IMG/VR virus record: IMGVR_UViG_3300007511_000004
Span: 32,001-96,000 of that record
DNA length: 64,000 nt
Source of the DNA: a virus
Direction: 5' to 3' (one strand)
Shown here in pieces: positions 9,250 to 27,458 of the stretch. The notes below the pieces were generated by a model. It was not told where the DNA came from. It saw only the letters and a list, made by a program, of their open reading frames with translations, and ran no database searches. The position numbers and the translations under genes were made by a program. How positions within the stretch are numbered: position 1 is the stretch's first letter; each line of letters begins with the position of its first letter.

Positions 9250-11736
9250 ATGATGGCTGTAGCAATTAAACATAAGAAGAGTTCTGTAAGTGACAACGCG
9301 CCGGGAACTGGCGACATTGGTTATGGCGAATTTGCCATCAACTATGCGGATGGTAGGCTATACTACAAGAACTCTTCAAATGCAATTAAGAACTTCATTG
9401 ATTCGGATTTAGTCCAGACGGCTATTACCACTACAGTCGATCAGGCATACCTTAACAGCAAGAATATTAATGCTGATACCCTTGATGGTCAACATGGATC
9501 ATATTACTTAGATTATAATAATTTTGTCAATACTCCTGCAGGTGGGTCCTCATGGGATTCTGCCACCACTAGAACGGTATTTAGTGTATCAGGTGATTTG
9601 GCTTATGATAGTGCTACTGGCCAATTCAGTGTTACTACATATAAAGATGCGGACTTCGATACTAGATTAGGGACAAAAACCACCGCTAATCTGACCGAAG
9701 GCAGTAATCTTTATTATACTGACACACGAGTTACCTCCCATGTAGATGCGGCGTACGTACAGGCAAGACAGGACTTTGCATATGCATCGTTAACTGGCGC
9801 GCCGAGTATCCCAACATTGGGTAATGATTATGTCGACTCTGGCCAGGTATCATCTATTATTACGGCAGACGTTGATGCAGCCTTTATTAATGCGCTAACT
9901 ATTGATGCCGACACACTTGGTGGGCAAAATAGTGCATATCATCTAAATTATAATAACTTTACCAATACCCCGACAATTCCATCTTTAGGTAATGACTACG
10001 TTGACTCTGGTCAGGTATCATCCATTATTACGGCAGATGTAGACGCGGCATTTATTAATGCGCTAACTATTGATGCCGATACACTTGGCAGCCAGGCAGG
10101 AAGCTATTATCTCAATTATAATAACTTTACTAATACTCCAACGATCCCATCTTTAGGCAACGACTACGTTGACTCTGCTCAAGTATCATCAATCATCACA
10201 GCAGACGTTGATGCAGCCTTTATTAATGCGCTAACCATTGATGCAGACACACTTGCAGGTCTTGCGAGTAGCTATTATTTAAATTACAACAATCTCAGCA
10301 ATAAGCCTACACTACCATCTCTTGGAAATGATTTCGTAGATAGTGCTGAAGGAAGAAAACTAATTTCGGTAACTGATGCCGGTGGGGATGGCTCTCTATC
10401 CTATAATAATGGTACAGGCGCCCTTACCTACACGGGGCCTTCTGCTTCGGATGTACGAGGACATTTCTCGGCAGGTGAAGGTGTATCGATCTCGAGCGGA
10501 GTGATATCAATTGCTCAGGCTGTCGATTCAACCGAGGACGTATATTTCGGAAGTGTTACTACTACGAGTAACATTATAGTTGGTGGGAACCTTACAGTAA
10601 ATGGTACTACTACCACACTTAATACTTCCACTCTTGACGTTGAAGATCTTAATATCACTGTTGCCAAAGACGCAGCAGATAGTGCTGCTGCAAACGGTGC
10701 TGGGCTTACAGTTGATGGTGCTGGTGCAACTCTTCTTTATAACCATAGTGGCAACCGGTGGGATTATAATAGAAGTATTAGTATCAATGGTAATCGTGTT
10801 CTAACAGTAGGCGACGAAGGCGCAGGTAACGGCCTTGATGCAGATACTTTAGATGGTCAGCAAGGATCATATTATCTCAATTATAATAACTTTACCAATA
10901 CTCCGGCTACAGATAATATCTTTAAGAACTTTGCAGTAAGTGGACAATCAACGGTTACTGCTGATACCAATAATGATACCCTAACCCTTGCAGAAGGATC
11001 TGGGGTAACCCTCACCACCAATGCCGGTACTGATACGATTACAATCTCCGCATCGTCTGGCGCGCCAACACAACCATCACCACCCGCCTCACCCTCTGAT
11101 GGGGATTTCTGGTGGGATGATTCCGCTGGCGATCTATACATCTATTATGTTGATAGCAGTTCGGGACAATGGGTACAAGCTTCACCTTCTATTCTGGCAG
11201 ATAACGCAGTCACCTATGCTAAGATGCAGGATATGACCACTGCACGAATTTTAGGACGTAATACCGCCGGTTCAGGAGATCCGGAGGAATTAACGGCAGC
11301 TACTGTCAGAACCATGCTTAATGTCGAAGACGGCGCTACTAACTATTCTCACCCGACCCATCCTGGAGATGACTTTAGTGTAGATACTGGTGCTTTAACC
11401 GGTGCGGTAGTCGTATCTGATATAGACATTAACGTCACTACGGATACGTCGGGTCACGTGACGGATGCCAACGGCTCAGTTTCTACCAGAACTTTAACAC
11501 TTGCTAATCTCGGTTATACTGGTGCTACCGACGCTAATAACTATTCTCACCCGAACCACACGGGTGATGTTACATCGTCGGGTGATGGGGCTACTACTAT
11601 TGCAAATAATGCAGTCACCAAGGCCAAAATGGCAAATGATGCAGTAGGGTCAGCTGAACTAGATGATGTAACATCCTTAGTAATATACAATTCTGGCGGA
11701 TCAGCAGTCAAAACTTTATACGGAGCCGGTAGCTAA
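9250..11736 (+). CDS. long tail fibre-like protein with internal repeats
   Basis: [16 protein letters not shown]-terminal domain, repeated DADTLDG-x-YYLNYNNF motifs, GDFWWD domain. Confidence 0.75.
9820..10340 (+). repeat. three tandem 168-bp (56-aa) repeats within the fibre gene
   Basis: [14 protein letters not shown] starts recur at 9820, 9988, 10156 and 10324. Confidence 0.9.
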
Positions 11737-13172
11737 TGGCAAGATTAAATTTTCCTAATAACCCCTCAAATAATCAAGAATATACCGCCAACGGAAATAA
11801 GTATAAATTCCGTCTGAAGCCCGGTACCTCCCACGGGTCTTGGCGGGCGACAGCCTTCCAGGATGCGCCTAGAGGTATAGCAGCTGCCGTTGAATTCGGG
11901 ACAGTAACAACCGGGTCCGCAGGATCCGATGCTTCGGTTTCTAATTCCGGTACCTCAAGTGATGCAGTTTTCAATTTTACTATTCCGCGGGGAGACACTG
12001 GTCAAACTGGTGCTAAGGGTCAGAAAGGCGCTGTTGGCGCAACCGGAGCAAAGGGTCAGAAAGGCGCTGTTGGCGCAACTGGTAGTACTGGTTCTAAGGG
12101 TCAAAAGGGCGAGCTGGGATTAACTGGTGCTAAGGGTAATACTGGCTCGACTGGTAGTACTGGCTCGACGGGTAGTACCGGGGCAAAGGGTAATACTGGC
12201 TCGACTGGTAGTACTGGTGCTAAGGGTAATACTGGCTCGACTGGTAGTACTGGCTCTACCGGCTCGAAGGGGCAAAAGGGTGCCACCGGCGATATCCCCT
12301 CGTCGCCGACATTTACCGATGGATATGTCAATGGCTGGTGGAGAAATAATACCTCAGGCAAAGGTCTATATAACCAAGCAACGGGTCAACACTGGTATTC
12401 CGATAACGATGATTATTGGAATATTGCCGGTGGTACCGCTGCAAACGGTATTAGATTTAGAGACGACCACGACGGTACTATTCGGGGTTATATGTATGTT
12501 GACCAATCAAGTAACGTTGGTTTCCTAAACTCTGGCGGTCAATGGTCAATCCGTTGTCATATTCCCGATGGCGAATCACCTAACATTTACTTTGAAGAAA
12601 ATGCAAACACAACTTGGTCTGGCGACCCTGGCAATAACGAAGGTAAAATTGAATATCACTCTGACAGATTCTACATTGCAGCAGGGGCAAATTCGAACCG
12701 GGTTTGTCAATTTAGAAGGTCAGGTTCTGACGTAGCTTATGTTGACAACTCAGGGATTTACACCGGAACCGCAACATCAGCTCGATGGGCGGACGTTGCA
12801 GAGAGATATGCAGCAGATGGGGTATATCCACCGGGCACGGTACTTGCTATTGGTGGCGATAAAGAAGTAACCGAATATAAAGCTGGTATGCCCTTAGCTG
12901 GATGTGTCTCCACTAATCCTGGTGTACGGATGAACAACCACTTCGAGGTAGAAGACGAGAATTCTCCTGAAGCAGTTCTTCATCCATACGTTGCGCTTGC
13001 GGGGCGTATCCCAGTATCCATCAACGGGTCGGCTAAGAAGGGTGATTATATTGTAGCTGATGACAATGGTAAAGGCAAGGCCGTTTCGACCTTGCCCTCT
13101 GACATCAATTTCACGTTGATCGTCGGGATTGCATTAGAAGATGGTACAGATCTAGTTGAAGTGAAGGTCTAG
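11736..13172 (+). CDS. collagen-like tail fibre with C-terminal autocleaving chaperone (peptidase G2/IMC-like) domain
   Basis: 34 uninterrupted G-X-Y triplets; C-terminal ADVAERY...GCVSTNPG...VALAGRIPV...KGD...IVGIALED. Confidence 0.8.
11991..12296 (+). repeat. collagen G-X-Y repeat (34 triplets, no proline)
   Basis: [12 protein letters not shown] ... GAT GDI read directly from the translation. Confidence 0.95.
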
Positions 13173-14292: not shown

Positions 14293-14677
14293 CTAATTCT
14301 TCCAAATAGTATTCGTAAACATCCGGTACCATCCCATCATCTCTATGTGATATATCAATTTCCTTGATAATCGCGTCGTATGTTTCCGGATCCTCATGAT
14401 AGGGTTTAAAATAGGGATCATCGGGGAGAAGATTCGGATATGATAATACGTCATAAAAGGTCTCGTTGAAATCTTCAGCAATCCAATTGGCATAACATAT
14501 TGCCACGAAATAAGACTTGGCCGGGTAGATCCACTTATCAACTCTTTCATAAAAGTGTTTAATTGCATCTGGTATGATAGTATCGGGCGCCCAGGTTATC
14601 TCGACTCGATTTAGGTCGTCTTTGGTGATATCCTTTAATCTCCGATATACCTCTTGTCTAACTTGCCATTCTTTCAC
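14285..14677 (-). CDS. hypothetical protein
   Basis: 130-aa ORF overlapping both neighbours; YPAKSYFVAICYA core. Confidence 0.65.
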   Translation of the reverse strand: MKEWQVRQEVYRRLKDITKDDLNRVEITWAPDTIIPDAIKHFYERVDKWIYPAKSYFVAICYANWIAEDFNETFYDVLSYPNLLPDDPYFKPYHEDPETYDAIIKEIDISHRDDGMVPDVYEYYLEELGD

Positions 14678-15923
14678 AGATCTTCCCTTCGATTATCGCA
14701 TAATATAATTCAGCGTCAACACTATATATTGAATCTACTAATCCAACTCCCTGTGCCACACAGTACCAATTGAAGGGGTTCCAGGGGAAAGCCATCGATC
14801 GGTTAGCAACACTCTCTACATTAAAATCCGTATCAAACCTGTCATCATTATAGTAGTGTAGTAGTATAAAATCTTTTATTTCATTAATTGAATTGAGTAG
14901 GGTGGCGTCTAACTCCCTATAATCGTAACCACTCTTAATAGATTCTCCGAACAATTTTGCGGCATAGACTATGAATTCGATATTAGTTGCTTCAAGAGGT
15001 TCTACAAAGTGTGCAGCTAACCCATTCGATAATACATTCTTATATGCAATTTTAGATAGGGCACCAGCTTCAAACCTCAGAATCCTACCACCTTCAATCC
15101 CCATTTCTGCTCGGGCTTCTTCGTCACTTATCCACTTGGAAGAATAAACATATCCCCTATTATTCCGATCCTGTAGGGGGATTGACCACTCCCAGCCATG
15201 TTCTCTTTTAATAGATTCGGTATAGTAGCATGGATCTGGTTCTTTAGAATACACTAGAGCCGAATCCAGATGTAGATCGTCAAAGGGAAGGTACTTGATA
15301 TCGAATGGATGAGATAATAGTCTTTTCTGGCCAGTACAATCCACATAGTAGTCTGCTACGTGTCCCTTTATCGATACTACACCATTATCATCAATTATTA
15401 CATCATTATCGTCAATCGTATCATAATGATGATTGATCTTACCTTTTAGGAAATCCCTAAGATAAGGTGCAACCAGATCATTTTGCCAATGGAGAGCTAT
15501 ATCCCACCAAAAGGGATCGTTACTTTCCAGGTCCGGTGGGATGTCGTCTAAAGCAAGTTGGGTATAGGGGCTTAGATTCTTAACCGGTTTCCCAGCCTTA
15601 AAGATATCCGTTAGAACATCCTGATCCGGAAAAAGCCTATCGATGAATGATTCACCGAAGGGATGGAAATACTCTTCTTCAGCCCAGTTAACGAAATTAA
15701 CCCCGTACTTCACGGTTGAATTGGTTTTTGAAATGAAATCTTTTAAATCAATATCCGCTGCTCTTAGAACATCTACTACGGTCTCAGTAACACTTTCGCC
15801 TACGCCAATCGGGGGAATAGTATTACTCTCGATAAGGGTAATATCAAAATCCTTATGGAGGATGAGAGCCGAGAACCAACCAGCGGTTCCACCGCCACAT
15901 ATTAATATCTTTTTTCGGTCCAT
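14658..15923 (-). CDS. flavin-dependent (tryptophan-type) halogenase
   Basis: GGGTAGW FAD motif, GVGES, catalytic-Lys motif TVKYGVNF, WEWSIP (WxWxIP), FVEPLEAT. Confidence 0.88.
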   Translation of the reverse strand: MDRKKILICGGGTAGWFSALILHKDFDITLIESNTIPPIGVGESVTETVVDVLRAADIDLKDFISKTNSTVKYGVNFVNWAEEEYFHPFGESFIDRLFPDQDVLTDIFKAGKPVKNLSPYTQLALDDIPPDLESNDPFWWDIALHWQNDLVAPYLRDFLKGKINHHYDTIDDNDVIIDDNGVVSIKGHVADYYVDCTGQKRLLSHPFDIKYLPFDDLHLDSALVYSKEPDPCYYTESIKREHGWEWSIPLQDRNNRGYVYSSKWISDEEARAEMGIEGGRILRFEAGALSKIAYKNVLSNGLAAHFVEPLEATNIEFIVYAAKLFGESIKSGYDYRELDATLLNSINEIKDFILLHYYNDDRFDTDFNVESVANRSMAFPWNPFNWYCVAQGVGLVDSIYSVDAELYYAIIEGKICERMAS

Positions 15924-16798
15924 TCTAATAATTCTCTATGCCCATTACATCCATCTGTTAAATCGTGTACGTACCTATAGTGCTCAGTAAGACACCTGCC
16001 GAAATAATCGCAATTGCGACAAATATCTGAAACGTTCTTGATTGGCTCGATCAGCGCCCATTTACGATATTCATCAAAACTGTCTAATTCTAAGAAATAT
16101 TCGCGATCCGACACATCAAATTCCAACACGCCGAATTTTCCGCTTGGGGTAATATATACGTGATTGTTACTGAAAGCGTTATAGTTTCCCGATATAGATT
16201 CCTCTATGCGATAGAGGTTTTCAAATTCGAATGGCAGATCTAACTCTAACCACTTTTTAACAAATTCTTCATAATCACTATGCTTAACATTGTGACAGTT
16301 AGCTTGGTTCGTTGAATATGGTTTGATCTCTACAGATCGAAGATTCGAGAGTAAAGATAATTCCTGTACCATGGAAGGTACATCCATATCAAGTACATTA
16401 CGACTTGCAAGTATAAGGACTGAGATTGGTACCGGTGATACTAGCATATTTGCAAATACTATATCACTCCGCTCTCTTGCAGCAAAGTCATATGAGACCG
16501 AAAGCGATATATCATTATCGTGCATGTATGTTTTAGGAGATGCGTAATTGGTAACAATATTAATTACACCATCATAATGCTTACGAATGATCTTCTTCAT
16601 ATCATAGAAGTAATCGTCACCTAATGTTGAGATCTCCCCGCCATATAAATCGATGTGGTGAATATCCGGGATCTCGCTCAACCTCTCATCTAATACCCTC
16701 AGATCAACCTTCTTCTTATCTGCTAATTGTTCACTAGTAAGATAACAAAAATCACATCGAAAATTGCAAAGATATGTGGGGTTGATCGATACGATCAT
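15902..16798 (-). CDS. radical SAM/SPASM protein (4 of 4)
   Basis: CNFRCDFC, YGGE, C-terminal CRNCDYFGRC...GC. Confidence 0.88.
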   Translation of the reverse strand: MIVSINPTYLCNFRCDFCYLTSEQLADKKKVDLRVLDERLSEIPDIHHIDLYGGEISTLGDDYFYDMKKIIRKHYDGVINIVTNYASPKTYMHDNDISLSVSYDFAARERSDIVFANMLVSPVPISVLILASRNVLDMDVPSMVQELSLLSNLRSVEIKPYSTNQANCHNVKHSDYEEFVKKWLELDLPFEFENLYRIEESISGNYNAFSNNHVYITPSGKFGVLEFDVSDREYFLELDSFDEYRKWALIEPIKNVSDICRNCDYFGRCLTEHYRYVHDLTDGCNGHRELLEWTEKRY

Positions 16799-17514
16799 AA
16801 CAATTGGGTCTCTTTATAGTATCCTGATTTCAATTTATTCTGACCCCATAGCTGGCTGTAGCCAAGAGTTGCAATGACTGTATATCGAGTTTTATCCGAA
16901 GTGAGCTCGGTCACCTTATGTACGAATGACGGATCATTATTATTTAAGATAATGATTTTATTACGATGTGGGGTATATCTTTGGGTTATCTCTACCTTAT
17001 CAGTGAGGATATCGTCTAACGAGGTCTCCGGTCTCCAATGAGGCATAGGATCACCAGGCTTCCATAGTATATCCGGTCTACCAACTAATAACTCTCCACC
17101 ATCTTCTTCGGTGAAGTCGTCCATATTAGGATAACAGAGTATTTGAAGTAATGTTCCATCATATCCATCAAAGTGCCAGGGTAACCCTCCGCCCTGACTC
17201 ACTTTATTAATATTGACGTGTATTTCGTCGAAATCTCCGTAGACGTGTCTCCAGTAATCGAAATAAGGTAACTGAACTATATCTTGGAAAAATTCTAAAT
17301 ACTGTTGCCGACCTTTAATGTAAACATCTTGATCTCTTTGGTGATATTCCCGATCCCAGACCGGATTCTGTACGATTGACCCATAACTACTTTCGGTACC
17401 AAAAGTCTCTGACATTAGCATGCTGAATAACATAGCGCTAAAAGAAGGATCCACGTCTACAATATCAGCGCCCTTCTTATATAAATCGTTGAAGTTAGGT
17501 ATCTCTTGTATCAT
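16795..17514 (-). CDS. 2OG-Fe(II) oxygenase
   Basis: WHFD...GGEL...FVHKV...RY. Confidence 0.8.
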   Translation of the reverse strand: MIQEIPNFNDLYKKGADIVDVDPSFSAMLFSMLMSETFGTESSYGSIVQNPVWDREYHQRDQDVYIKGRQQYLEFFQDIVQLPYFDYWRHVYGDFDEIHVNINKVSQGGGLPWHFDGYDGTLLQILCYPNMDDFTEEDGGELLVGRPDILWKPGDPMPHWRPETSLDDILTDKVEITQRYTPHRNKIIILNNNDPSFVHKVTELTSDKTRYTVIATLGYSQLWGQNKLKSGYYKETQLL

Positions 17515-18025
17515 AATTAAACGTCACTACAATTCGGGCTTCGGGAGATTTGGGCTGAGAAGAACTATGGAATTTTAATCCATTGAACCACATTGTTCTA
17601 TTTGCTACAGAATCACATACACTTTCTATAGTATATTCTTTATGTTGTTCCGGTCCATTCTCTTTATATATGTAGGTTGGAGCAGTACTATCCGTTACGT
17701 AATAGAGCTGGGTTGTGTGAGGTTGCATATAGTCTACATGGGGATCATGCACCATACCACCCTCATTACTATTAAATATATATCCGATTCGTATCCGGAT
17801 CAGACGACCGAAATCTAGGTTAATCAGTGGGGATAATAATCCAAACAATCTTTTATCATTGATATTCCCATTCCGATAAACCACAGTAGAGAATCCATTT
17901 TGGTTATCACTGCCCCCTTTCTTTACCACATTCTTATTAAACGTCCATTGGGTTTCGGGAGATAGGATTTCTTCATGAATTAGTTTGTGTGAAAAGGGAG
18001 TTAGGAAATTGTCAATTATTTGCAT
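17495..18025 (-). CDS. 2OG-Fe(II) oxygenase
   Basis: IIDNFL start (ATG 18025), PHVD...FHSS...RIVVTFN. Confidence 0.8.
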   Translation of the reverse strand: MQIIDNFLTPFSHKLIHEEILSPETQWTFNKNVVKKGGSDNQNGFSTVVYRNGNINDKRLFGLLSPLINLDFGRLIRIRIGYIFNSNEGGMVHDPHVDYMQPHTTQLYYVTDSTAPTYIYKENGPEQHKEYTIESVCDSVANRTMWFNGLKFHSSSQPKSPEARIVVTFNYDTRDT

Positions 18026-19004
18026 GAATAATCCTTTCTTCAAGCTCTTTCATTAGACTGCAATGCTTTTCCACCATATCATGCTGCTTCATATCCTTTA
18101 TGGTTTTCTTGCATCCATTACAGATCTGGAATAATGCACAGGCGTAACACCCGCTATGCATAGTCTGGATATCAAGCTCTTTCTGCAGCGGGGTGAAGAA
18201 TTCACCGGCCATCTCCTTTTCGAAGTCAATGGAGTATTCTCGATCATCCCCAAATGATCCGCAACTATAATAATCGCCACTTGGCTGCATCGCTCTAATT
18301 GTATAATCACAGTCTCTATTCTGTGGACAAACCATAGCCTCATTTCGGAGTCTCTTAACCATCTGCTTCGTATTAAATTCCCATTCCATTAGACCCGATT
18401 CATAGATCTCCAGATACTTGCTATACATCTTAGATAATTGATACGGTCGGGATTGAACGCCCGAAGCCATTGCGTAGTTTAGCTTACATTCAACTCCCAT
18501 CTCCTTTGCAAGTTTGACATTATCAAGTGCGGTATCTTCATTCTCTTCGTCGATAACTGATATGAAATCGGGTCTGTATCCGACCCATTCGAGCATCTTG
18601 TCTGATACCGCCCAGAAGTCTTCTTCCGTGAAAACGCTATAATCACCCTTCAGTCTCGAGCTGCCATAATGAAATGACGTGGTTATACCCATACGCGGAT
18701 GAGTAAAAATATCGATCCACTTCTCTGGCTTCTGGTAGAAAGGCCAGAGATTAGTTGTAAAGGAAACAGTTGCTCGATGATCGTGATCGTCAAGGTGTGC
18801 TAATAGTTTCTTATAATACGAAGGATCCATCATTAAAGGATCCCCGCCATTTACAATAATAGTGTTGGTATCCGGAAACCGCTCCAGGAATCTATAGATT
18901 CGGTTAAGTTCTATTTGATCCTTGACGTCGTCTGCAATTGACGTACTTGAGCAGAAAGTGCATTTGAAGTTGCAACGTTCCGTGGGCTTAATAATTAGTT
19001 CCAT
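18012..19004 (-). CDS. radical SAM/SPASM protein (3 of 4)
   Basis: IKPTERCNFKCTFC, NGGDP, C-terminal C...C...YSC...CYACALFQICNGC...C. Confidence 0.9.
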   Translation of the reverse strand: MELIIKPTERCNFKCTFCSSTSIADDVKDQIELNRIYRFLERFPDTNTIIVNGGDPLMMDPSYYKKLLAHLDDHDHRATVSFTTNLWPFYQKPEKWIDIFTHPRMGITTSFHYGSSRLKGDYSVFTEEDFWAVSDKMLEWVGYRPDFISVIDEENEDTALDNVKLAKEMGVECKLNYAMASGVQSRPYQLSKMYSKYLEIYESGLMEWEFNTKQMVKRLRNEAMVCPQNRDCDYTIRAMQPSGDYYSCGSFGDDREYSIDFEKEMAGEFFTPLQKELDIQTMHSGCYACALFQICNGCKKTIKDMKQHDMVEKHCSLMKELEERIIHANN

Positions 19005-19630
19005 AATGAAATACCTGCATTGATGGTATACCGATTAACGTTATTATTGGTTAACCTCTTTACTGAATGTACCAAGCGGGGGTTTCCATTATTCAATAGA
19101 ATTACTTTCCCGTTAGCTGGATACACAGTGTGCTTAGTTTCGACCTCCCCGTCAGGCCAGGTTCTTTCGCCGAGTTTAAGATACGATTCCCACTCATTAT
19201 CCCATCTACTTTCCTCAGTGAAATAGATTAGGAATCCGATATCGTGATCTTCTACCCCATCCCAATGCCATCCAAGCTCCGCTGATCCGTTCCACACATC
19301 TATGAATTTTAATTTATGATTATAGCCGCAAGTTCTTTTAAACCACCCGGTGTAATGCGGATCACCGAATAATTCATTTATCACCTCTATATAAATTGGA
19401 GGAACAGACTCGACGCTTTTTTGATTGACTTGCCCCTCACGATCTCTGTGATATTTTTTAGCCTTCTCGGGTGCACCATCTGCTGCATTTATACTCCAGT
19501 CTGGCACACCTTTATATTCAATGTGATCTACCCAATTCTCAGATAAAAGCTGACCCCAGACCATAGCATTAAGATGGGTAGGCAGCTCCCATTCATCATA
19601 CCCATCCTTGTAGAATTTATCGACGTTCAT
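18995..19630 (-). CDS. 2OG-Fe(II) oxygenase (paralogue of 16795..17514)
   Basis: WHWD...LVHSV...RY; NNGNPRLVH matches NNNDPSFVH. Confidence 0.8.
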   Translation of the reverse strand: MNVDKFYKDGYDEWELPTHLNAMVWGQLLSENWVDHIEYKGVPDWSINAADGAPEKAKKYHRDREGQVNQKSVESVPPIYIEVINELFGDPHYTGWFKRTCGYNHKLKFIDVWNGSAELGWHWDGVEDHDIGFLIYFTEESRWDNEWESYLKLGERTWPDGEVETKHTVYPANGKVILLNNGNPRLVHSVKRLTNNNVNRYTINAGISLWN

Positions 19631-20091
19631 ATTGCCGTTGTTCCTAGCCGAGTTTTTCCCTCACCTGTAATATATAGCTGAAGGTCTGATACCTTGGCTA
19701 TTCTAATGATACCGTAGAAGGGCGAGGCTGTGTGATAGACGTAAGCGGGGAAGGTTACTGTCATACCAGTAGTCGGTTTAATAATATATGGTTCGAAGTG
19801 TGAGGCCAACTGCGAGGGGTAGCCACGATTAGCATTACCTCGCGGGTCGTGAAGTATTAGTTCCCCGCCCTCCCCTGAGACGTGTTCATAGTAGATGGAT
19901 GTGAAGTGAGCGTGACCGTGATTATGAGTCGCTAGCCAATAGCCAGACTGTGGGCTTGTTTCCCAGTTACGGATAGCGTGATCAAGTTGATCAAGATCCT
20001 CCTGAAAATAGATTTGTAAATATTCTTTGAATCGTGTCCCAGGATCAGGGTTACCGTTCTCTTCAACGTGTATCGGGGTGGACCACATCAT
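19627..20091 (-). CDS. putative 2OG-Fe(II) oxygenase (TIGR02466-like)
   Basis: HNH...GGELILHDPR...FPAYVYH...R. Confidence 0.75.
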   Translation of the reverse strand: MMWSTPIHVEENGNPDPGTRFKEYLQIYFQEDLDQLDHAIRNWETSPQSGYWLATHNHGHAHFTSIYYEHVSGEGGELILHDPRGNANRGYPSQLASHFEPYIIKPTTGMTVTFPAYVYHTASPFYGIIRIAKVSDLQLYITGEGKTRLGTTAI

Positions 20092-21052
20092 AAACCTCAC
20101 TTAAAAAACATGTATCTTGAGTTCTGAAACTTTGGATGTGGTTTGATAAAAAACATCCCATATTACAATACTGGAAGTGTGCACATTCAAGACAGTTGTA
20201 TTGTTTGAACCATTTCTCTTCCATCTCAAATTTGGATGGTTGATAATTCCGTTTTAGATCTTTTACTAGAATTGTACATGGGCCTGATGTTCCATCGGGT
20301 AAAATGGTAACAGTATCCATGCAGGTCATTTGCTTCTTTACCTTGTTTTGCATATCGTTAAAGGGTAGAACCTTTGGATACTTATCCAGCATGTATAGTA
20401 TAAAATCCCGAAGCATAATATCATTAGGTAGGAAGGTATCCATATTAGCTTCGGGCGTATAATAGTCAAAGTAGATACCAAATCGATCATAAAGGTAATC
20501 GAAAAACGGTACATCGTCTCTCATGAATTTCCGGATACTCGGCTTCGTCATAATGACATTCACCGATTTAATATAATCCCTATACCTTCTTACATTCTCC
20601 TGGAATATCGGAAAGGTGGTCTTATTGAATCGGGCAGAAGGGTCGTAACTAGTTAATAAAGTAACCGGATCCGATCCTAACATTATATCGAATCTTTCGG
20701 TGTTTGTAAATACGAAGTTAGTAGTAAAACAAATTTCTAGATTAATACCTTCGCTGAATGCCCAATTATTTAATTCACGTATGACCTTACCGTAATCCTG
20801 AAATACCCTATCAGGTAAAGCGTCAGCGAAGACCTCTCCGCCCATAAAATGTACACTATAGTCCTCTCGGGGTAAACTCTTAATCCGACCCTTGATTATA
20901 TCGATCTTTTCTAGAATGGTATCGATACCGAAAAAACTATTATGGTCCTGACTGCAGAATTTACAATTCAGATCGCAATATTCGAAGAGAGTGACGATGA
21001 TCTCTCCAGTCTTACCCCTTTTACCCGTCCGGCTTATTACATCAATTGACAT
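20063..21052 (-). CDS. radical SAM/SPASM protein (2 of 4)
   Basis: CDLNCKFC, MGGE, C-terminal C...PC...CLECAHFQYCNMGC...C. Confidence 0.9.
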   Translation of the reverse strand: MSIDVISRTGKRGKTGEIIVTLFEYCDLNCKFCSQDHNSFFGIDTILEKIDIIKGRIKSLPREDYSVHFMGGEVFADALPDRVFQDYGKVIRELNNWAFSEGINLEICFTTNFVFTNTERFDIMLGSDPVTLLTSYDPSARFNKTTFPIFQENVRRYRDYIKSVNVIMTKPSIRKFMRDDVPFFDYLYDRFGIYFDYYTPEANMDTFLPNDIMLRDFILYMLDKYPKVLPFNDMQNKVKKQMTCMDTVTILPDGTSGPCTILVKDLKRNYQPSKFEMEEKWFKQYNCLECAHFQYCNMGCFLSNHIQSFRTQDTCFLSEVYDVVHPDTR

Positions 21053-21578
21053 TCTTGAATACCATATTACAAACCAAACTGATCCGGGTATCTTCTCCTA
21101 GGTATGGAGTTACTTCGTGCCAGATGTAATAAGGAGCTGCGATCAATAATCCGGTTTTTGGCTCTATCTCAACATAAGGTTCTCGACAGAATGATTTCCG
21201 ATTAGTGAACCTCGGGTCGTACAGTCTCAGCTTACCGCCTTCCTCTGATTCGTTTGAATAGTAAACGGCAAAGGCATCTATCTGATCATGGGTATGACAG
21301 GATTTGAAGTCCCCACGATCCATCGGATTGATGATATTAAAAGAATCCATATCATAGTCGGGTGGATGGTCATAGTGGAAACATAGTGCATCGAAAGCTG
21401 ATTTAAAGCGCTCGCGGATAGTTCTCATATTATCAGAGACCCACAAATCCACATTATAGTCAGCGGGTTTCGTTGGAAGAGTGGCGATAATAGCCTTGGA
21501 GGTATTTAAGATATCCTTATTAAACTCGTCGCTATCATCATATTGTTTAGTGTATATAAAGGATTCAAATTCTATCAT
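21042..21578 (-). CDS. putative 2OG-Fe(II) oxygenase (TIGR02466-like)
   Basis: HTH...GGKLRLYDPR...WHEV...RISLVCN. Confidence 0.8.
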   Translation of the reverse strand: MIEFESFIYTKQYDDSDEFNKDILNTSKAIIATLPTKPADYNVDLWVSDNMRTIRERFKSAFDALCFHYDHPPDYDMDSFNIINPMDRGDFKSCHTHDQIDAFAVYYSNESEEGGKLRLYDPRFTNRKSFCREPYVEIEPKTGLLIAAPYYIWHEVTPYLGEDTRISLVCNMVFKNVN

Positions 21579-22705
21579 AACCTAAAATTATTCAATTCTC
21601 CACTATTAGCATTTTTCAATTTATAGATGTAGTTTAGGAATAATACATTTACCTTCAATCGATCTTCACATTCGAATGCCGAAGTGGAAAGGGGCTTCAG
21701 TTCTTCCGCCATGATCGAACCAATTCCCGCAGTGTCGATATACCCCAGTGACAGAGAATCGTATACAGCATCCATTATAGTATCAGATAGATTTTCCTCG
21801 AATGGGGTTTGGCTATTCTGGGTAACTGCTTGCATCATTTCAGATCGGATTGTCGAGAATCGGATATTAGGATGACGGTTTACATAATCGACTCTGTGGT
21901 ACTTTCCTTCATCATCGAATAACCAGCGGGTTCTATCATTAGTATCCTTAAGCGCTATTAGATCATCTTCAGCATTCACATCACTGATCCCGAGAACCCC
22001 TTGGACCCAGCTTTTATAGATGTTATAGAATAGGTGAGATTTGAGGAACTGAACCTCCTCGTTACATTTCTTACCCAATAGTTTTAACATCTTCTTTCCG
22101 AGGCTACCATTATGATCAGACCCGCTTGCGAGGTAATTTGCAATTAAGAACTCCACCCCGATATTAGGAATAATCTCCGATCGTAATACCGAATAATCTG
22201 CCCATGATAGATCTAACGTTATGGCATTCCACTTAGTGATAAATTCAGACTTACTTAGATAAGTAATCCCCTTAGCATTATTCTTTTGTTTTTCCAGCCC
22301 ATCGTTTGCGCCCCATAGAAAAGTAGTGGTATTTTCTAACTGGGAATTGAGACTGAATGTATTATAAATCTTCCATGCTATATCAACATGTAAAGTTTCA
22401 AATAGTAGCTTTATGAATTTAATAATTATCTTATCATAATTATCACGATTGACGTGGATATTCACTGTACCTTTATTCTTAAGCGCAGTAAAGAAATCTT
22501 TATCATTATCATATGGGGCGTCATCCCCGGTCCACAGTTCCTCTAGGTCGTCTACATTGTGCATCTGGGCCTTCAGATCCCTCCAGGCAGTCTTCAAATC
22601 TTCGAGGAAGATGGAGTTTAAATTAGGGGTAATAACCATGTTATCGACATTATTGTCCATTAAGTAATCGTACTTAACGTAAACTTTATCAAAGAGCAGA
22701 AACAT
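21575..22705 (-). CDS. hypothetical protein (376 aa)
   Basis: Long ORF overlapping its operon neighbours; no recognisable motif. Confidence 0.65.
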   Translation of the reverse strand: MFLLFDKVYVKYDYLMDNNVDNMVITPNLNSIFLEDLKTAWRDLKAQMHNVDDLEELWTGDDAPYDNDKDFFTALKNKGTVNIHVNRDNYDKIIIKFIKLLFETLHVDIAWKIYNTFSLNSQLENTTTFLWGANDGLEKQKNNAKGITYLSKSEFITKWNAITLDLSWADYSVLRSEIIPNIGVEFLIANYLASGSDHNGSLGKKMLKLLGKKCNEEVQFLKSHLFYNIYKSWVQGVLGISDVNAEDDLIALKDTNDRTRWLFDDEGKYHRVDYVNRHPNIRFSTIRSEMMQAVTQNSQTPFEENLSDTIMDAVYDSLSLGYIDTAGIGSIMAEELKPLSTSAFECEDRLKVNVLFLNYIYKLKNANSGELNNFRL

Positions 22706-23432
22706 ACTCTAATTCCTTTTGCATTTGGTGTTGAAAGTCTTCATGGATAATTTCCCCTGATGAGACCCCATATGTTAACATAGCCATGAAATTATTAGGA
22801 GTAGTCCAATAGTAAAACATATTTTTACCTTTGAACATCGGTTCGTTGAATTGTTTTTCCATATAGTATACTGGGATATCTAATGCGAGGATGGCCTGAG
22901 CCTCCTCCCATTCATACATTTTTACATAATTTACCCCAATGTAATCATAGTCGTCAATTGTCTCAAACTCGTTCTTTGCTGCTTCCCGTATCGCTTCATC
23001 ATTAATGGTAGTTACATTAAAAACTGACCCGGAAGCAATAGCGGTTAGCCACCTATTAATTATTTCAGGATTCTCTGATCGGAATTCCGCCATCTCATCA
23101 TCATTTAGAATATATTCAATATCGTAAATCTCGTCGATCCATTCGAACCCGGCTTCTTGATAGAGCATTTTAAGTACGGTCAATTCGGAATGAACCGAGT
23201 TAATGATCAACCTATGGTTCATATAGACCAGAATATAGTTTTTACGATCAGCTAATGATACCTTATCCCAGCCAACTATATTACAGGGGATATCCAGATT
23301 GCTGACGTAGGTAATCAACTTATCTTCTTTTAATATGCTTTCGCTATAATCAATATTAAAGATGATACTATCATCATTAAAATACTCCTTCAATTCCTCC
23401 ATGGGAATAGGAGCCACAGTATCTTTTATCAT
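22689..23432 (-). CDS. hypothetical protein (247 aa, acidic)
   Basis: ORF immediately downstream of the candidate precursor; no recognisable motif. Confidence 0.65.
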   Translation of the reverse strand: MIKDTVAPIPMEELKEYFNDDSIIFNIDYSESILKEDKLITYVSNLDIPCNIVGWDKVSLADRKNYILVYMNHRLIINSVHSELTVLKMLYQEAGFEWIDEIYDIEYILNDDEMAEFRSENPEIINRWLTAIASGSVFNVTTINDEAIREAAKNEFETIDDYDYIGVNYVKMYEWEEAQAILALDIPVYYMEKQFNEPMFKGKNMFYYWTTPNNFMAMLTYGVSSGEIIHEDFQHQMQKELEYVSAL

Positions 23433-23435
23433 AAT

Positions 23436-24011
23436 TTATCTACGTCCTCTTGAAGTGTGACAGTCGTAATGACAACTATAATGACAGGTATCAATGTCTC
23501 GGGTGAGGGCGGAATCCCTTACATTCCGATATGCGGTTCGTACTGATGACAGATACGATTCCATTTCACTGGAGGATATGGTCCTACCAGAATTCACTGT
23601 ACTGGAATACCCTGGCGCGGATACGGATGATCGAGCATTGTATGTTCCGGATGTGGGCTGATACGCTTTAGCAGTACTATCAATCTGCAACTCACTAGTA
23701 CCATTGTTATCGAAATATCTTCGAGCCCGCATATTCCTCATATGGGTCCAGTCAGTTGCGCCGGTGACCATCCCAGTCCGGACTGTCGAAGCAGTAATAG
23801 TTCCCCCGGAAGAACCTAGATCATTATCTGACATATATCCAGTGCTGCTAGGTAAAGATGCAGTAGAACCCCCGAACCGATCGTTAGGCATTTCGGAAAA
23901 AGGTTTACTGTTAGTCCCCCATGATACTGAGGCTTTCGCGTCGGCCGCAACATAATCCTGCCATCTCTTACGAACGTTACTTCGACTGATATTATTTGTT
24001 AAGGATACCAT
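23436..24011 (-). CDS. Ser/Thr-rich protein with C-terminal CHxxCHxxCH repeat; candidate substrate/precursor of the radical SAM cluster
   Basis: Ends DTCHYSCHYDCHTSRGRR; all three of its Cys residues lie in this tail; sits directly after the first rSAM gene. Confidence 0.65.
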   Translation of the reverse strand: MVSLTNNISRSNVRKRWQDYVAADAKASVSWGTNSKPFSEMPNDRFGGSTASLPSSTGYMSDNDLGSSGGTITASTVRTGMVTGATDWTHMRNMRARRYFDNNGTSELQIDSTAKAYQPTSGTYNARSSVSAPGYSSTVNSGRTISSSEMESYLSSVRTAYRNVRDSALTRDIDTCHYSCHYDCHTSRGRR

Positions 24012-24012
24012 A

Positions 24013-25035
24013 TTAAATCCTGTCGATCTGTTTATTTGTATTTATGTCTTTTAACAACATCATTAGAGTTTTCGGGGAGGGACATGTATCACCTTCCCAT
24101 TCTAATTGATGGCAATCTGATCCACACACGTCGAATACCGGGCATTCGAAACAAGCGGGGTTTCGATTCAATTCCTTCATTATAATACTACATCTGCCGT
24201 TTGATTTTAAAACTTCAGACGCAGGCTGATTTATATGCCCATATGCGTTTTGGGGAGCGGTATTAGGGCATCCAGCAATTGAACCATCAGCATTAATAGT
24301 AATTAACTTTTGTTCACAGTCTCGACACCAGGTACCTTGGCTCGGATTGTTTTTCTCGAACTTGGCGTAAATATTCTCCATGATTACATGATATATGGAA
24401 TCCCGGTCATTCAATTGATTGTGGTATCTAACAAACCAATTATCGATCTCTTTATTCGAAGGCCATAATCCGGAATTAAGCTTGGCGTTGCCATCCATAG
24501 TAATCCGCTCAAAGTCTAATTCATGGATACCGAGACTTGACATGTAGGCAATGATCTGCTTCGGTGGCATATCTAGAACAGATTTACTCATACTAACGAA
24601 GCATTTAACAGTATATCCCATACCCACTAATAATTTGACATTATCCTCCCATAATCTTCGCTGTTTTACATTGGCGAATCTGATAGTAGGATCCCAAGAA
24701 GTACCGATGCGCTTATTGAGAACATCCTCAAAGAATTTGAGCTTCTCTTCGGTGAGTTTATACGTAAGGTTTGATGTGATACCATAATTATCCCCATCGG
24801 TCAATTCAACGAATCTTCGCAACGAGGACACGGGCGCGAGCATTGGCTCACCACCATGAAACTCATACCAAATAGAATCTGCAGTTAATTGATTAACCCA
24901 GGCTGCAGTTGCCTCGGGATCGAAGTAGATCTTCTGACCAGAAATCCCAGAAGTGAAACAATGAGAACAATTGAGATTACAGGTCTCAGTTGTTTTCACA
25001 TAAACGGATAAGCGTTTCGGTGTCGTTAATTGCAT
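24013..25035 (-). CDS. radical SAM/SPASM protein (1 of 4)
   Basis: KTTETCNLNCSHC, FHGGEP, full SPASM CRDC...GCP...CFECPVFDVCGSDC...CP. Confidence 0.92.
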   Translation of the reverse strand: MQLTTPKRLSVYVKTTETCNLNCSHCFTSGISGQKIYFDPEATAAWVNQLTADSIWYEFHGGEPMLAPVSSLRRFVELTDGDNYGITSNLTYKLTEEKLKFFEDVLNKRIGTSWDPTIRFANVKQRRLWEDNVKLLVGMGYTVKCFVSMSKSVLDMPPKQIIAYMSSLGIHELDFERITMDGNAKLNSGLWPSNKEIDNWFVRYHNQLNDRDSIYHVIMENIYAKFEKNNPSQGTWCRDCEQKLITINADGSIAGCPNTAPQNAYGHINQPASEVLKSNGRCSIIMKELNRNPACFECPVFDVCGSDCHQLEWEGDTCPSPKTLMMLLKDINTNKQIDRI

Positions 25036-25456
25036 ATGAAACCATTAATGCCTTTTTATCGTTGATTGCCCGATGCCGGACGTTTGCCGGGATTAGTAGG
25101 GTCTCTCCAGGATGAATCGTATACACCTTACCCTCGACCTCCATCACTTTCTCTCCATCATGACATTCTATGTGAACATCATGTGGATCTGTATGCTCTT
25201 TGAATGTAGTACCATGTGCCGGATTGTAGAAGAAATGCATAGTTCTATCGTTTAGTTGATACAATCTTTCCATCTGCTCAACCTTAATAGTGCATTGACC
25301 CTCTGCTATAATAACCCCCAGTCGGGCTAAATATCCACAAAAGTCCAGATCACTATTAAGATAATGTTGAAGGCCGTCTCTATCTATATACGACACATCA
25401 TGATTTAGGTAGCACTCGGGAGAGTCTACGAAATTAAAAAAGTCTTTGAAAAACAT
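24986..25456 (-). CDS. cupin/JmjC-like oxygenase
   Basis: HTD...PGETLLIPANVRHRA cupin motif. Confidence 0.7.
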   Translation of the reverse strand: MFFKDFFNFVDSPECYLNHDVSYIDRDGLQHYLNSDLDFCGYLARLGVIIAEGQCTIKVEQMERLYQLNDRTMHFFYNPAHGTTFKEHTDPHDVHIECHDGEKVMEVEGKVYTIHPGETLLIPANVRHRAINDKKALMVSYAINDTETLIRLCENN

Positions 25457-25486: not shown

Positions 25487-25520
25487 ATTATATCAGGTTT
25501 ATCTACATTTGTAAACCCCC
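25487..25520 (-). promoter_or_regulatory. sigma70-type phage early/middle promoter driving the radical SAM operon
   Basis: Minus strand reads GGGGG-TTTACA-N17-TATAAT with TG extended -10. Confidence 0.8.
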
Positions 25521-25532
25521 TTGGAGAATATT

Positions 25533-27458
25533 ATGAGAAAAATTTGTATAAATCTTAAATCGCGCCGGGATAGACGAACTCGGATCAATACTGAGATAGC
25601 TCCTAAAATTGGTGAGATTGAGTTCATTACCGCTGTAGACGGTAAAACCGCTGACTTCAGTTCACCTATTAATAATACCAACTTTTCTTCCAAGAAGGGG
25701 TGGCGAGATCCATTCTCCCGACGGCCTATTACGGTTGGTGAAATGGGATGTTTTGCTTCCCATTTTAAAGCGTGGGAAATGGTCTTAGAAGCGGCTGAGC
25801 CTTGCATTATATTTGAAGATGATATCGATATTAACTGGGACCTTTGGGATGAATCGAAGCTCGAAGAAATCATGAAGGTGAATAAGGGGGATATTAGCCT
25901 TCTTCTCTTGGGATATAATGAAAATGAACCGGAAAATGTTATCCAACATCCAGAGTATGATAATGTTATCATTCCGGCCTACCCCTACAATGCACACGCT
26001 TACATATTGAATCCCCACGCAGCACAGTGGATGGTTGCATGCGAAATCAATAAGGAAGTTATCCCTGTTGATGAATTCATTTCAGATATGAGAAGGGAAT
26101 ATGGCAAAAACGTCAGAGCGCTAGATACCAATTGGGTCAATCAATTACCTAGATCTGAGTGGGGGAGTAATATAGAACCACAATCTGATCAGGATTGGTT
26201 TATTGATTTTGGTATGCACGCCGTAACAGTTGGCACGGATACCACTCGATGCAATAAGTTAATGTCCAGCGCTACCATAAATGGGTTTGATGTAAAGAAC
26301 CTCGGGATCAATAAAAAATGGACTGGTGGCGATATGACAGTAACTGGCGGGGCGATGAAGATCCGCTTACTACGAGAATATCTTACCAAATTAAAACCCC
26401 ATGACGTGGTTCTGTTTACGGATGCCTATGATGTATTTTACACGGGTTCATTGGAAGAGATCGTCCGCCGATATTTAGATACAAAGTTTGATATTCTATT
26501 TGCCGGAGAGAACAACTGCTGGCCCGATGAATCTTTAGGAGATCTGTTCCCCGATACTATTTCTGAATACAAGTATCTGAACAGTGGTACCTTTATAGGC
26601 ACGTCGAGTGCTATATTGCAGCTAATTCAATCAGATGTTCCTGATGATTATGATGATCAGCTCTATTATCAACAAAGGGTATTGAATATCCCTATCAATA
26701 ATCAGCATATCCAGGACCACGGTTTAACTATTGGATTAGATGTTGAACAATACATCTTTACCACCTATGATCCTGAATGTTACGTATTGAATAATCAGGT
26801 CTTTAATCCCAAGACGCATTGTTACGGATTAGTGTATCACGGAAACGGAGGGACCGAGGCAAAGGAAGACTTTGCACGGAAATACGATCAGATATTTAAA
26901 CCTTCCACTGCTTTGTATATCCCATCCATGGGAAAGTTTGATATACTTGAAAAGGATATGCTACTTGTTGATTTCATGACAAGTGATCAATGTGAACAGT
27001 TAATTGAAATTGCTGATGGGCACGGGGAATGGGAGCCATTACCTGGAGATAAATTCCCAGCCTATGAAATTCGAATGAAAGAATTGGGCCTATGGAATGA
27101 TCTCCTTAAACATTGGGAAGAAAATCTCTATCCTATTATCGAGAAGCATTGGTGGCCAATTCAAATGTATGGTTTGAGAGATGCCTTTGTAATGAGGTAT
27201 TCAGTTGATACACAGAAATCTCTCGCTATGCACCATGATGCAAGTCTTGTTACGGCTTCAGTTAAGTTGAATGATAATTATAAAGGGGCGGTATTAGAAT
27301 TTCCTCGGCAGGGTATCAGTAATGCGGATATCCCACCAGGTAAGGCAATATTATTTCCGGGTATGGTTACCCACGGACATGAATGCACTACCTTACAAGA
27401 GGGGGTTAAATATAGCCTTACTATGTGGTCAAGTCGCTATACTGGAGATGAAAATTAA
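25533..27458 (+). CDS. multidomain collagen-modifying enzyme: GT25 (COLGALT-like) + PLOD-type glycosyltransferase + lysyl-hydroxylase-like 2OG-Fe(II) domain
   Basis: INLKSRRDRR/AVDGK/GEMGCFASH/FEDD (GT25); WTGGDM...FTDAYDV...CWPD...YLNSGTFIG (PLOD GT domain); FVMRY...HHDAS...THGH (PLOD hydroxylase). Confidence 0.85.
   Translation: MRKICINLKSRRDRRTRINTEIAPKIGEIEFITAVDGKTADFSSPINNTNFSSKKGWRDPFSRRPITVGEMGCFASHFKAWEMVLEAAEPCIIFEDDIDINWDLWDESKLEEIMKVNKGDISLLLLGYNENEPENVIQHPEYDNVIIPAYPYNAHAYILNPHAAQWMVACEINKEVIPVDEFISDMRREYGKNVRALDTNWVNQLPRSEWGSNIEPQSDQDWFIDFGMHAVTVGTDTTRCNKLMSSATINGFDVKNLGINKKWTGGDMTVTGGAMKIRLLREYLTKLKPHDVVLFTDAYDVFYTGSLEEIVRRYLDTKFDILFAGENNCWPDESLGDLFPDTISEYKYLNSGTFIGTSSAILQLIQSDVPDDYDDQLYYQQRVLNIPINNQHIQDHGLTIGLDVEQYIFTTYDPECYVLNNQVFNPKTHCYGLVYHGNGGTEAKEDFARKYDQIFKPSTALYIPSMGKFDILEKDMLLVDFMTSDQCEQLIEIADGHGEWEPLPGDKFPAYEIRMKELGLWNDLLKHWEENLYPIIEKHWWPIQMYGLRDAFVMRYSVDTQKSLAMHHDASLVTASVKLNDNYKGAVLEFPRQGISNADIPPGKAILFPGMVTHGHECTTLQEGVKYSLTMWSSRYTGDEN

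Follow-up and report, generated by a model that had tools for sequence, protein, structure and literature searches.

Radical SAM/SPASM maturation is known for RiPP peptides, sulfatases, one dehydrogenase subunit and, since 2026, an antiphage effector. Among the peptides, SCIFF and ranthipeptide precursors are about 45 aa long with six Cys, carry an RRE-dependent leader and end in a Ser/Thr-rich core with a four-residue Cys spacing, their maturases being SPASM enzymes with two auxiliary clusters; triceptide cores follow an aromatic-X-X3 rule and need no Cys. Full-length proteins are targets as well. The anSME/AtsB enzymes, RRE-less radical SAM/SPASM proteins of ~340-370 aa, act on a short Cys motif of sulfatases (C/S-x-P/A-x-R), and in the QhpC/QhpD pair a radical SAM/SPASM enzyme cross-links, via Cys, the gamma subunit of quinohemoprotein amine dehydrogenase, a periplasmic enzyme subunit that stays in the larger assembly with no release of a peptide. 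In the HXS antiphage system, the effector HxsA is matured by the radical SAM enzymes HxsB and HxsC together with HxsD, and its modification (+8 Da) maps to S-H-R-S-S, where neither the His nor the two Ser flanking it are dispensable (Li et al., Nat Commun 2026, PMC13128918).

Our survey of the literature on radical SAM/SPASM enzymes in phages, virions and tail fibres and on the tail motif returned no description of the C-terminal tail or the gene cassette reported here, nor of a dedicated multi-enzyme radical SAM pathway finishing a phage particle protein. A comparative review of jumbo phages makes no mention of radical SAM, and phage papers class the cassette genes as "accessory", naming them radical SAM, cupin or Fe-S oxidoreductase only. 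The locus probably adds a new substrate class and a portable tag to the known radical SAM/SPASM protein maturation. On balance, we favor the reading that the tail of its protein X is where radical SAM enzymes recognise and modify a virion-associated phage protein, probably one associated with the fibres.

The analyzed stretch of DNA (the window, 64,000 nucleotides) lies in a 146.6-kb virus record of a marine T4-like myovirus and encodes portal, sheath, large terminase, UvsW, gp46-like and family-B polymerase proteins. The portal protein is 64% identical to that of phage C48C1 and ~50% identical to those of Methylophilales and cyanobacterial myophages. X comes third in a closely packed minus-strand operon, in which the genes overlap or abut and follow the order cupin, rSAM1, X, Y, Z and then further enzymes. 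The features of the region are as follows.

25487-25515, minus strand: sigma-70-like promoter (TTTACA, 17-nt spacer, TATAAT) upstream of the cupin gene, a consensus match only
24986-25456, minus strand: cupin (JmjC / Asp-Asn hydroxylase-like), first cassette gene, overlapping the rSAM1 start (PF07883, 2e-9; position conserved)
24013-25035, minus strand: rSAM1, radical SAM/SPASM enzyme, ending 1 nt before the X start codon (PF04055, TIGR04085)
23436-24011, minus strand: gene X, 191-aa folded alpha/beta protein, putative substrate, probably virion-associated (ORF, AlphaFold2, family alignment)
23436-23486, minus strand: part of X coding for the tail, 16 codons and the stop codon
22689-23432, minus strand: gene Y (phrog_20767), 247 aa, conserved cassette partner (PHROG match)
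21575-22705, minus strand: gene Z, 376 aa, conserved yet fast-evolving cassette partner (sequence comparison)
21042-21578, minus strand: 2OG-Fe(II) oxygenase (PF13759, 1.6e-8)
20063-21052, minus strand: rSAM2, with a weak SPASM-type C-terminus (PF04055; phrog_1802, 6.4e-38)
18995-20100, minus strand: two 2OG-Fe(II) oxygenase genes, at 19627-20100 and 18995-19630 (profile search)
18012-19004, minus strand: third radical SAM enzyme (PF04055, 1.5e-10)
17495-18043: denV-like endonuclease gene inserted in the operon (sequence search)
15902-17514, minus strand: 2OG-Fe(II) oxygenase (16795-17514) and fourth radical SAM enzyme (15902-16798) (profile search)
14658-15923, minus strand: flavin-dependent tryptophan-halogenase-like enzyme at the distal end of the operon (PF04820, 1.2e-62; same position in L001)
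down to 13152, minus strand: three small ORFs past the halogenase, one with weak P-loop matches
9250-13172, plus strand: two tail-fibre genes converging on the operon end (tail-fibre PHROG matches)

Overall, the tailoring enzymes of the operon comprise four radical SAM enzymes, four to five 2OG oxygenases, a cupin and a halogenase. The T4 late-promoter sequence TATAAATA was found nowhere on the minus strand within the operon; a sigma-70-like promoter without a T4 late promoter is unusual for a structural gene and counts against a structural role of X. The cassette partner Y and rSAM1 turned up in one and the same set of 15 cultured-phage records, and Y was modelled by AlphaFold2 at pLDDT 95; its fold searches (Foldseek, VIA) returned nothing above Z 4.6, and its alignment has no conserved Cys. 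Its partial resemblances to radical SAM barrels (ChlB, Z 3.6; anSME, Z 3.3) are too weak to build on. The alignment of Z has no catalytic motif, and comparison of Y and Z with the ESM Atlas gave nothing usable.

An earlier sequence-only reading of the window had proposed that X ends in three C-H-x-x units that hold all of its Cys. Both points were borne out: the minus strand at 23436-23486 codes for CHYS-CHYD-CHTS-RGRR and a stop codon, so that the ORF ends in ...DTCHYSCHYDCHTSRGRR and the stop, and the 191-aa protein contains three Cys, none outside the tail, and four His in total. That reading had named loss of the tail among homologues as one observation that would speak against it; the tail was kept both in 27 close homologues, obtained by a word-indexed search, and in 171 relatives found by HMM. 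The latter stem from an exhaustive HMMER scan giving 181 cluster representatives (50% clustering) and are whole-protein HMM matches possessing the C-terminus, the motif having played no part in their selection. The family is large, and the tail is its best-conserved region. In the alignment of the 27 close homologues, C176, H177, C180, C184, H185, R188, G189, R190 and R191 are invariant, and only four scattered columns outside the tail (V21, I72, A74, G142) are so. Per-column information rises from ~1-2 bits in the body to 3.5-4.3 bits in the tail, in an alignment that was selected for the motif and of which the unselected columns alone count.

Three C-H dyads together with three H-x-[S/N] triplets occur in 147 of the 171 HMM-found relatives, followed by a C-terminal RGRR in 122 and RSRR in 28; a few relatives have two or four units or lack R-x-R-R. 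Over 509 units, position 4 is occupied by Ser (438), Asn (55), Ala (11), Asp (4) and Gln (1), which gives Ser and Asn a share of 97%. The His-Xaa-Ser/Asp triplets of the earlier reading therefore hold for HYS and HTS, whereas HYD is atypical, with Asp found in 4 of 509 units. Natural variants exist in which the second-unit His is replaced by Phe with F-x-S kept (P0024-26), or in which the middle unit lacks Cys and retains H-x-N (P0052, P0064). Judged from these alignments, the tail motif is far above chance expectation.

The enzyme encoded immediately upstream, rSAM1, has the CX3CX2C motif of the superfamily with C19, C23 and C26 invariant among 44 orthologues, at a PF04055 score (21.8 bits) under the Pfam cut-off of 29.5. 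Its SPASM domain passed the TIGR04085 cut-off (28.2 bits against 27). By the criterion C-x9-15-G-x4-C ... C-x2-C-x5-C-x3-C ... C with seven Cys, C256 (in G255-C256), C295, C298, C304 and C308 are invariant in the same orthologues, and C237, C240 and C318 nearly so. No RRE is present in rSAM1, since the sequence begins at the radical SAM core, at residue ~10. Compared with PDB sequences, the rSAM1 family profile retrieved 8vpo, CteB (5wgg) and anSME (4k36/4k37) at E ~1e-8 to 4e-9, the profile alignment with anSME running end to end. Against NCBIfam equivalogs, the scores were all far under the cut-offs: anSME (TIGR03942) 43.2 bits with a cut-off of 349, the best match; PapB (NF047865) 39.1 with 340; DynA 37.5; HxsB (TIGR03978) 35.2 with 370; DarE 33. 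The triceptide maturases scored 28.5 (YhhB, cut-off 445), 25.4 (FxsB, 370) and 20.8 (AmcB, 425), and the Qhp family TIGR03906 18 bits. Because the scores against curated families are low and nearly tied, they favor no chemistry; choosing one by enzyme similarity was tried and abandoned, anSME, PapB, DynA, HxsB, CteB and 8vpo being statistically tied.

Compared with the described systems, the X locus appears to share working principles rather than membership. As in HXS, a whole protein would be the target of several radical SAM enzymes, and the putative target is a basic repeat based on His-x-Ser, the unit in X being (S)-C-H-x-S. In HxsA, however, the HxS repeats are contiguous and free of Cys, and the protein contains a peptidoglycan-binding domain and is exported to the periplasm, whereas in X a Cys stands ahead of each His, the repeat is C-terminal and followed by R-G-R-R, and there is no export signal; moreover, HXS is a bacterial defence and the X cassette is phage-encoded. 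The H-x-[S/N] triplets of X are split by Cys, with only HYS and HTS in this protein. HxsC was absent among the best 25 of 30 NCBIfam matches, and no HxsD-like match was found for Y or Z. rSAM1 has the RRE-less architecture of anSME, and X shares with anSME substrates the Cys/Arg spacing in its last unit (C-H-x-S-R), the Ser-Arg being as in C-x-P-S-R. Here the unit reads C-H-T-S-R, and the Pro/Ala position of the sulfatase motif is Gly, Ser or Thr, in most relatives Gly or Ser; the two other units end in Cys, not Arg, and X has no sulfatase or other Pfam domain. The tail resembles a SCIFF or ranthipeptide core in position, Cys spacing and Ser/Thr content, and CteB and PapB are among the top matches of rSAM1; X differs in its length of 191 aa, its folded body of 175 aa, its three Cys and a neighbouring enzyme lacking an RRE. 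Its H-x-[S/N] is compatible with the aromatic-X-X3 rule of triceptides, with Ser and Asn interchanging at X3 and an F-x-S variant, but in X a Cys precedes nearly every unit. X would resemble QhpC in remaining within a larger assembly after modification, and the two pairs are related at the superfamily level only. Thus, of the SCIFF, His-Xaa-Ser and triceptide patterns recognized earlier, the likeness in working principle stands, and the scores fall short of the curated cut-offs for membership in these families.

The association between tail and enzyme was examined with an exact degenerate DNA pattern for (CHxx)3-RxRR-stop, that is, with the tail alone and without use of the enzyme. The pattern, with a chance rate of ~1e-13 per position by a back-of-envelope estimate, was found in at least 120 IMG/VR contigs and in 47 GTDB contigs; one match (L160) is a CHCHCH low-complexity run, apparently due to chance. 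The pattern left Ser at unit position 4 and the Gly of RGRR open, and both were 85-100% conserved in the matches. ORFs were called on the matched contigs and their neighbours labelled by HMMs made from the window proteins. Among the matches listed, 73 of 75 long-type X genes (≥150 aa, with ≥1.3 kb upstream) had a same-strand radical SAM gene ≤2.8 kb upstream, and 89 of 91 had a radical SAM gene within 6 kb; for short-type X genes, a radical SAM-like gene lay within 6 kb in 40 of 46 of the matches listed. Approximately 27 of the 47 GTDB contigs come from Bdellovibrionota and have the same neighbours. In the one case inspected, a 1.29-Mb contig of Halobacteriovoraceae, the cassette adjoins a protein with a Peptidase_S74 fibre-chaperone domain and is flanked by housekeeping genes (serine dehydratase, acyl-CoA dehydrogenase, YchF and PBP1); the copy does not look like a prophage.

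The order cupin-rSAM1-X-Y-Z is repeated on metagenomic contigs with X homologues down to 33% identity, and also in cultured jumbo phages. Carriers of the cassette include cultured jumbo phages of Ralstonia, Burkholderia, Agrobacterium, Sinorhizobium and Pseudomonas, marine T4-like phages and chromosomes of predatory bacteria. The cultured carriers were reached by searches with Y and rSAM1 only, as BLAST with X does not reach them. A cupin followed by a radical SAM gene and a tailed X was seen in all six cultured lineages inspected (RSF1, Atu_ph07, pPa_SNUABM_DT01, Phosso, SURPRISE13 and RsoM3USA); the C-terminal ends are VCHSSCHSSCHGSRGRR in Ralstonia phage RSF1 ORF071 and FCHSSCHASCHNSRSRR in Agrobacterium phage Atu_ph07 AUZ94952. 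Between the marine phage and the soil jumbo phages, rSAM1 is 39-47% identical, whereas the X body there is not detected by tblastn. Enzyme and tail have thus been conserved together while the bodies diverged, as expected if the enzyme reads the tail. The cassette adjoins fibre genes in the window, in L009, in L003 and in one predatory-bacterium chromosome. Just upstream on the same strand, L009 and L003 each encode a long protein whose C-terminal fibre-type PHROG domains are those seen in the window; in L003 this fibre-type gene precedes the cupin-rSAM1-X genes, and in L009 a pair of short X genes stands directly behind the long tail-fibre-like gene, followed by a divergent radical SAM gene (CNHGCLGC), a 367-aa ORF, Y and two more radical SAM genes.

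The tail packs three Cys and three His, typical ligands of soft metals, into 10 residues, and it could serve a structural protein as a metal-binding tip (Zn, Fe, Cu or a small Fe-S centre, perhaps inter-chain) that stays unmodified, with the neighbouring radical SAM enzymes acting elsewhere, for example on fibre proteins or on a small molecule. The fibre tips of phage T4 contain metal ions bound by His, fibre genes stand beside the cassette, and the predicted helical tail sets the Cys along one face. However, the variants with Phe for the second His and with a Cys-less H-x-N unit (P0024-26, P0052, P0064), as read from the alignment, argue against an obligate metal-ligand set. Chelation also leaves unexplained why Ser/Asn at position 4 and R-x-R-R are conserved just as strongly, as well as the near-perfect, translationally coupled adjacency to one radical SAM/SPASM orthologue, and we regard this explanation as unlikely. 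A heme-type reading of the tail, also raised earlier, fares far worse. The two overlapping motifs C176-x3-C180-H181 and C180-x3-C184-H185 do match the rare CX3CH variant of c-type heme attachment sites, so that the spacing is present, but such attachment requires periplasmic Ccm/CcsBA machinery; X is cytoplasmic, its N-terminus has neither a signal peptide nor a hydrophobic stretch, no Ccm/CcsBA genes lie nearby, and His181 can be Phe in relatives. We consider heme attachment extremely improbable.

Residues 1-175 of X are rich in Ser (17.7%), Thr (11.4%) and Gly (7.4%). From a 148-sequence alignment, AlphaFold2 modelled the single chain as an alpha/beta domain with pLDDT 90 and pTM 0.84, and the tail as a low-confidence helix (pLDDT 54-60), which suggests that the tail is a flexible appendage of the predicted domain. 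The confidently folded model implies that the body is no disordered leader. No match to X was found in Pfam, PHROGs or NCBIfam, and none of 50,697 phage records matched X or its region by megablast or tblastn. The X profile gave a single chance-level homeodomain match among PDB sequences (E 0.024). Foldseek of the model against the PDB found nothing below E 0.9, a wide VIA-align search had designed helical proteins on top (Z 4.3), and BFVD returned family members alone, Atu_ph07 among them. The predicted fold of the body could therefore not be placed on any solved structure, by which newness of the fold is not implied.

In a second architecture, short X proteins of 124-140 aa occur in tandem pairs. 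By BLASTP, the tail is the sole part common to short and long X, whereas profile comparison matched the last ~55 residues, corresponding to the final helix, a beta-strand and the tail; RSF1 ORF071 aligned across 122 columns. The tail is hence borne by bodies with differing N-terminal parts, and since the match of short and long X is limited to the C-terminus, the portable unit appears to be a module of ~55 residues with the last 16 nearly fixed.

A classical precursor would be a different solution, with the 175-residue body as an oversized leader or scaffold and the tail released as a peptide or redox cofactor, as with PQQ, mycofactocin and pearlins. Leader domains of large size do exist, the core would be C-terminal and next to SPASM enzymes, and tailoring enzymes are abundant in the operon. 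The conserved core cupin-rSAM-X-Y-Z, however, contains no recognisable protease or exporter, the body is conserved and well folded in the AlphaFold2 model, fibre genes stand beside the cassette in phages and predators, and the counterpart body in Atu_ph07 occurs in virions. Taken together, we judge release of the tail to be quite improbable.

The virion evidence comes from PEG-purified particles of Atu_ph07, for which 131 proteins were listed (PMC6102473). Gene product numbers were mapped to accessions in two steps, beginning with the "structural protein" gp180 = AUZ94962 and followed by computed masses matching Table S5, which gave AUZ94952 (31.89 kDa) = gp170, AUZ94958 (66.07 kDa) = gp176 and AUZ94959 (21.66 kDa) = gp177. 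The tail-bearing X homologue is thus gp170, a distant relative at the hhalign/BFVD level. It was detected in virions with 8 unique peptides and 35% coverage in bands 1-9 (PMC6102473 Table S5), whereas its neighbours cupin, rSAM, Y and Z (gp168, 169, 171, 172) are absent from the virion list (PMC6102473). The 32-kDa gp170 reached its peak abundance in band 1, the top gel band, together with the ~87-127 kDa proteins gp197 and gp20 (PMC6102473). This is compatible with a virion protein kept in a high-mass form that resists SDS, for one distant homologue and with noisy band positions, one 98-kDa protein having peaked in the bottom band (PMC6102473). The earlier impression of a body unlike a RiPP leader and more like a virion protein was strengthened by the confident fold and by this distant counterpart in virions.

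Modification of the tail in one form or another appears likely. In the reading that we favor, radical SAM modification of a virion-associated protein, the C-terminal module (helix, beta-strand and (Cys-His-x-Ser)x3-Arg-Gly-Arg-Arg) would be read by rSAM1, encoded 1 nt upstream. The flexible tail would sit in the rSAM1 active site, where an auxiliary cluster plausibly binds a Cys thiolate, as happens in CteB; by abstracting hydrogen atoms, rSAM1 would leave each C-H-x-S unit with a single covalent change. Further enzymes of the operon probably act on this module too, namely the radical SAM paralogues, the cupin and the 2OG oxygenases. Mature X would then enter the particle, where a rigidified basic tip may serve fibre assembly, stability or cell-surface contact.

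As for the chemistry, the four-residue Cys spacing and the resemblance of the enzyme to CteB, PapB and anSME favor a Cys-based reaction. Thioether rings from Cys sulfur to carbon, as in ranthipeptides and SCIFF, are a tentative candidate, and conversion of Cys to formylglycine by an anSME-like reaction is rather improbable. The invariant His, the Ser/Asn two residues on, the His-to-Phe variant and the Cys-less H-x-N unit favor instead an aromatic-to-Ser link; a His-to-Ser/Asn C-C cyclophane or an HXS-type change is accordingly worth considering, if doubtful. Some other chemistry we hold to be improbable. With four radical SAM paralogues, a cupin and 2OG oxygenases at hand, more than one chemistry may act on the tail. 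Resolving the chemistry of the tail could bring to light a new cross-link in proteins and account for a large block of "auxiliary" phage genes, which annotation usually assigns to metabolism; the 16-residue tail, compact and portable, could also yield a new enzymatic protein-tagging tool.

A more far-reaching idea, which we put forward as unlikely, is that phages and Bdellovibrionota share a covalent, cross-linked Cys/His/Arg "warhead" built by radical SAM enzymes at the tip of a fibre-associated protein. If true, it would be needed for attaching to or breaching the prey envelope, or for passing DNA through periplasmic barriers such as HXS, and would represent a new class of post-translational modification on virion proteins and a phage-side mirror of the radical SAM-matured defence effector. 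With several carrier phages available as cultures, modification of the tail can be put to the test directly. The C-terminal tryptic peptide of X is DIDTCHYSCHYDCHTSR, and the C-terminal peptide of gp170 ends in ...FCHSSCHASCHNSR.

The window phage carries, beside the operon that holds the tail-bearing protein X, a gene transcribed divergently from that operon and encoding a three-domain protein of 645 aa:

25521-27458, plus strand, GT25 glycosyltransferase, PLOD-type glycosyltransferase domain and 2OG oxygenase

The domain architecture of this protein is the same as that of the collagen lysyl hydroxylase/glycosyltransferases, and the neighbouring fibre gene (11736-13172) matched collagen-like tail PHROGs. 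Together, the two genes suggest a second fibre-modification system.

Within the modification operon, the partner protein Y (22689-23432, minus strand) gave a confident predicted model (m2ecfbcbba8f9, pLDDT 95), for which no convincing solved structural relative was found. The weak partial structural matches (Z 3.3-3.6) include the radical SAM barrels of ChlB and anSME. Y may be a cluster-less relative that holds the substrate. The same operon includes an endonuclease gene, with a radical SAM gene on one side and a 2OG oxygenase gene on the other:

17495-18043, minus strand, denV-like DNA endonuclease V (phrog_274, 1e-30)

This gene is probably an insertion unrelated to the operon. More unusual enzymes of the phage are encoded outside the operon:

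2823-4364, plus strand, B12-binding radical SAM enzyme (HpnJ/PhpK-like, PF04055 4.8e-21)
61264-62559, plus strand, asparagine synthase-like gene

The tail and radical SAM cassette is also chromosomal in predatory bacteria, namely at locus L176/L177 (G002:C1:287000-326900) and on about 27 Bdellovibrionota GTDB contigs. The one copy inspected does not look like a prophage, since it is flanked on either side by housekeeping genes and adjoined by a Peptidase_S74 (fibre chaperone) protein.

A second architecture was seen at the IMG/VR locus L009 (2523-3286) and some 20 further IMG/VR loci (e.g., L034, L043 and L085), where short tail-bearing proteins of 124-140 aa form tandem pairs immediately after a long tail-fibre-like gene, followed downstream by divergent radical SAM genes barely picked up by rSAM HMMs or Pfam. 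The X family itself has fused, repeated and tail-variant members, which could reveal dispensable tail elements: P0088 has 453 aa and P0141 825 aa with six matched stretches, P0132 bears four CH units without RGRR, and P0154, P0163, P0167 and P0174 end C-terminally in CHGSL or CHGSI.
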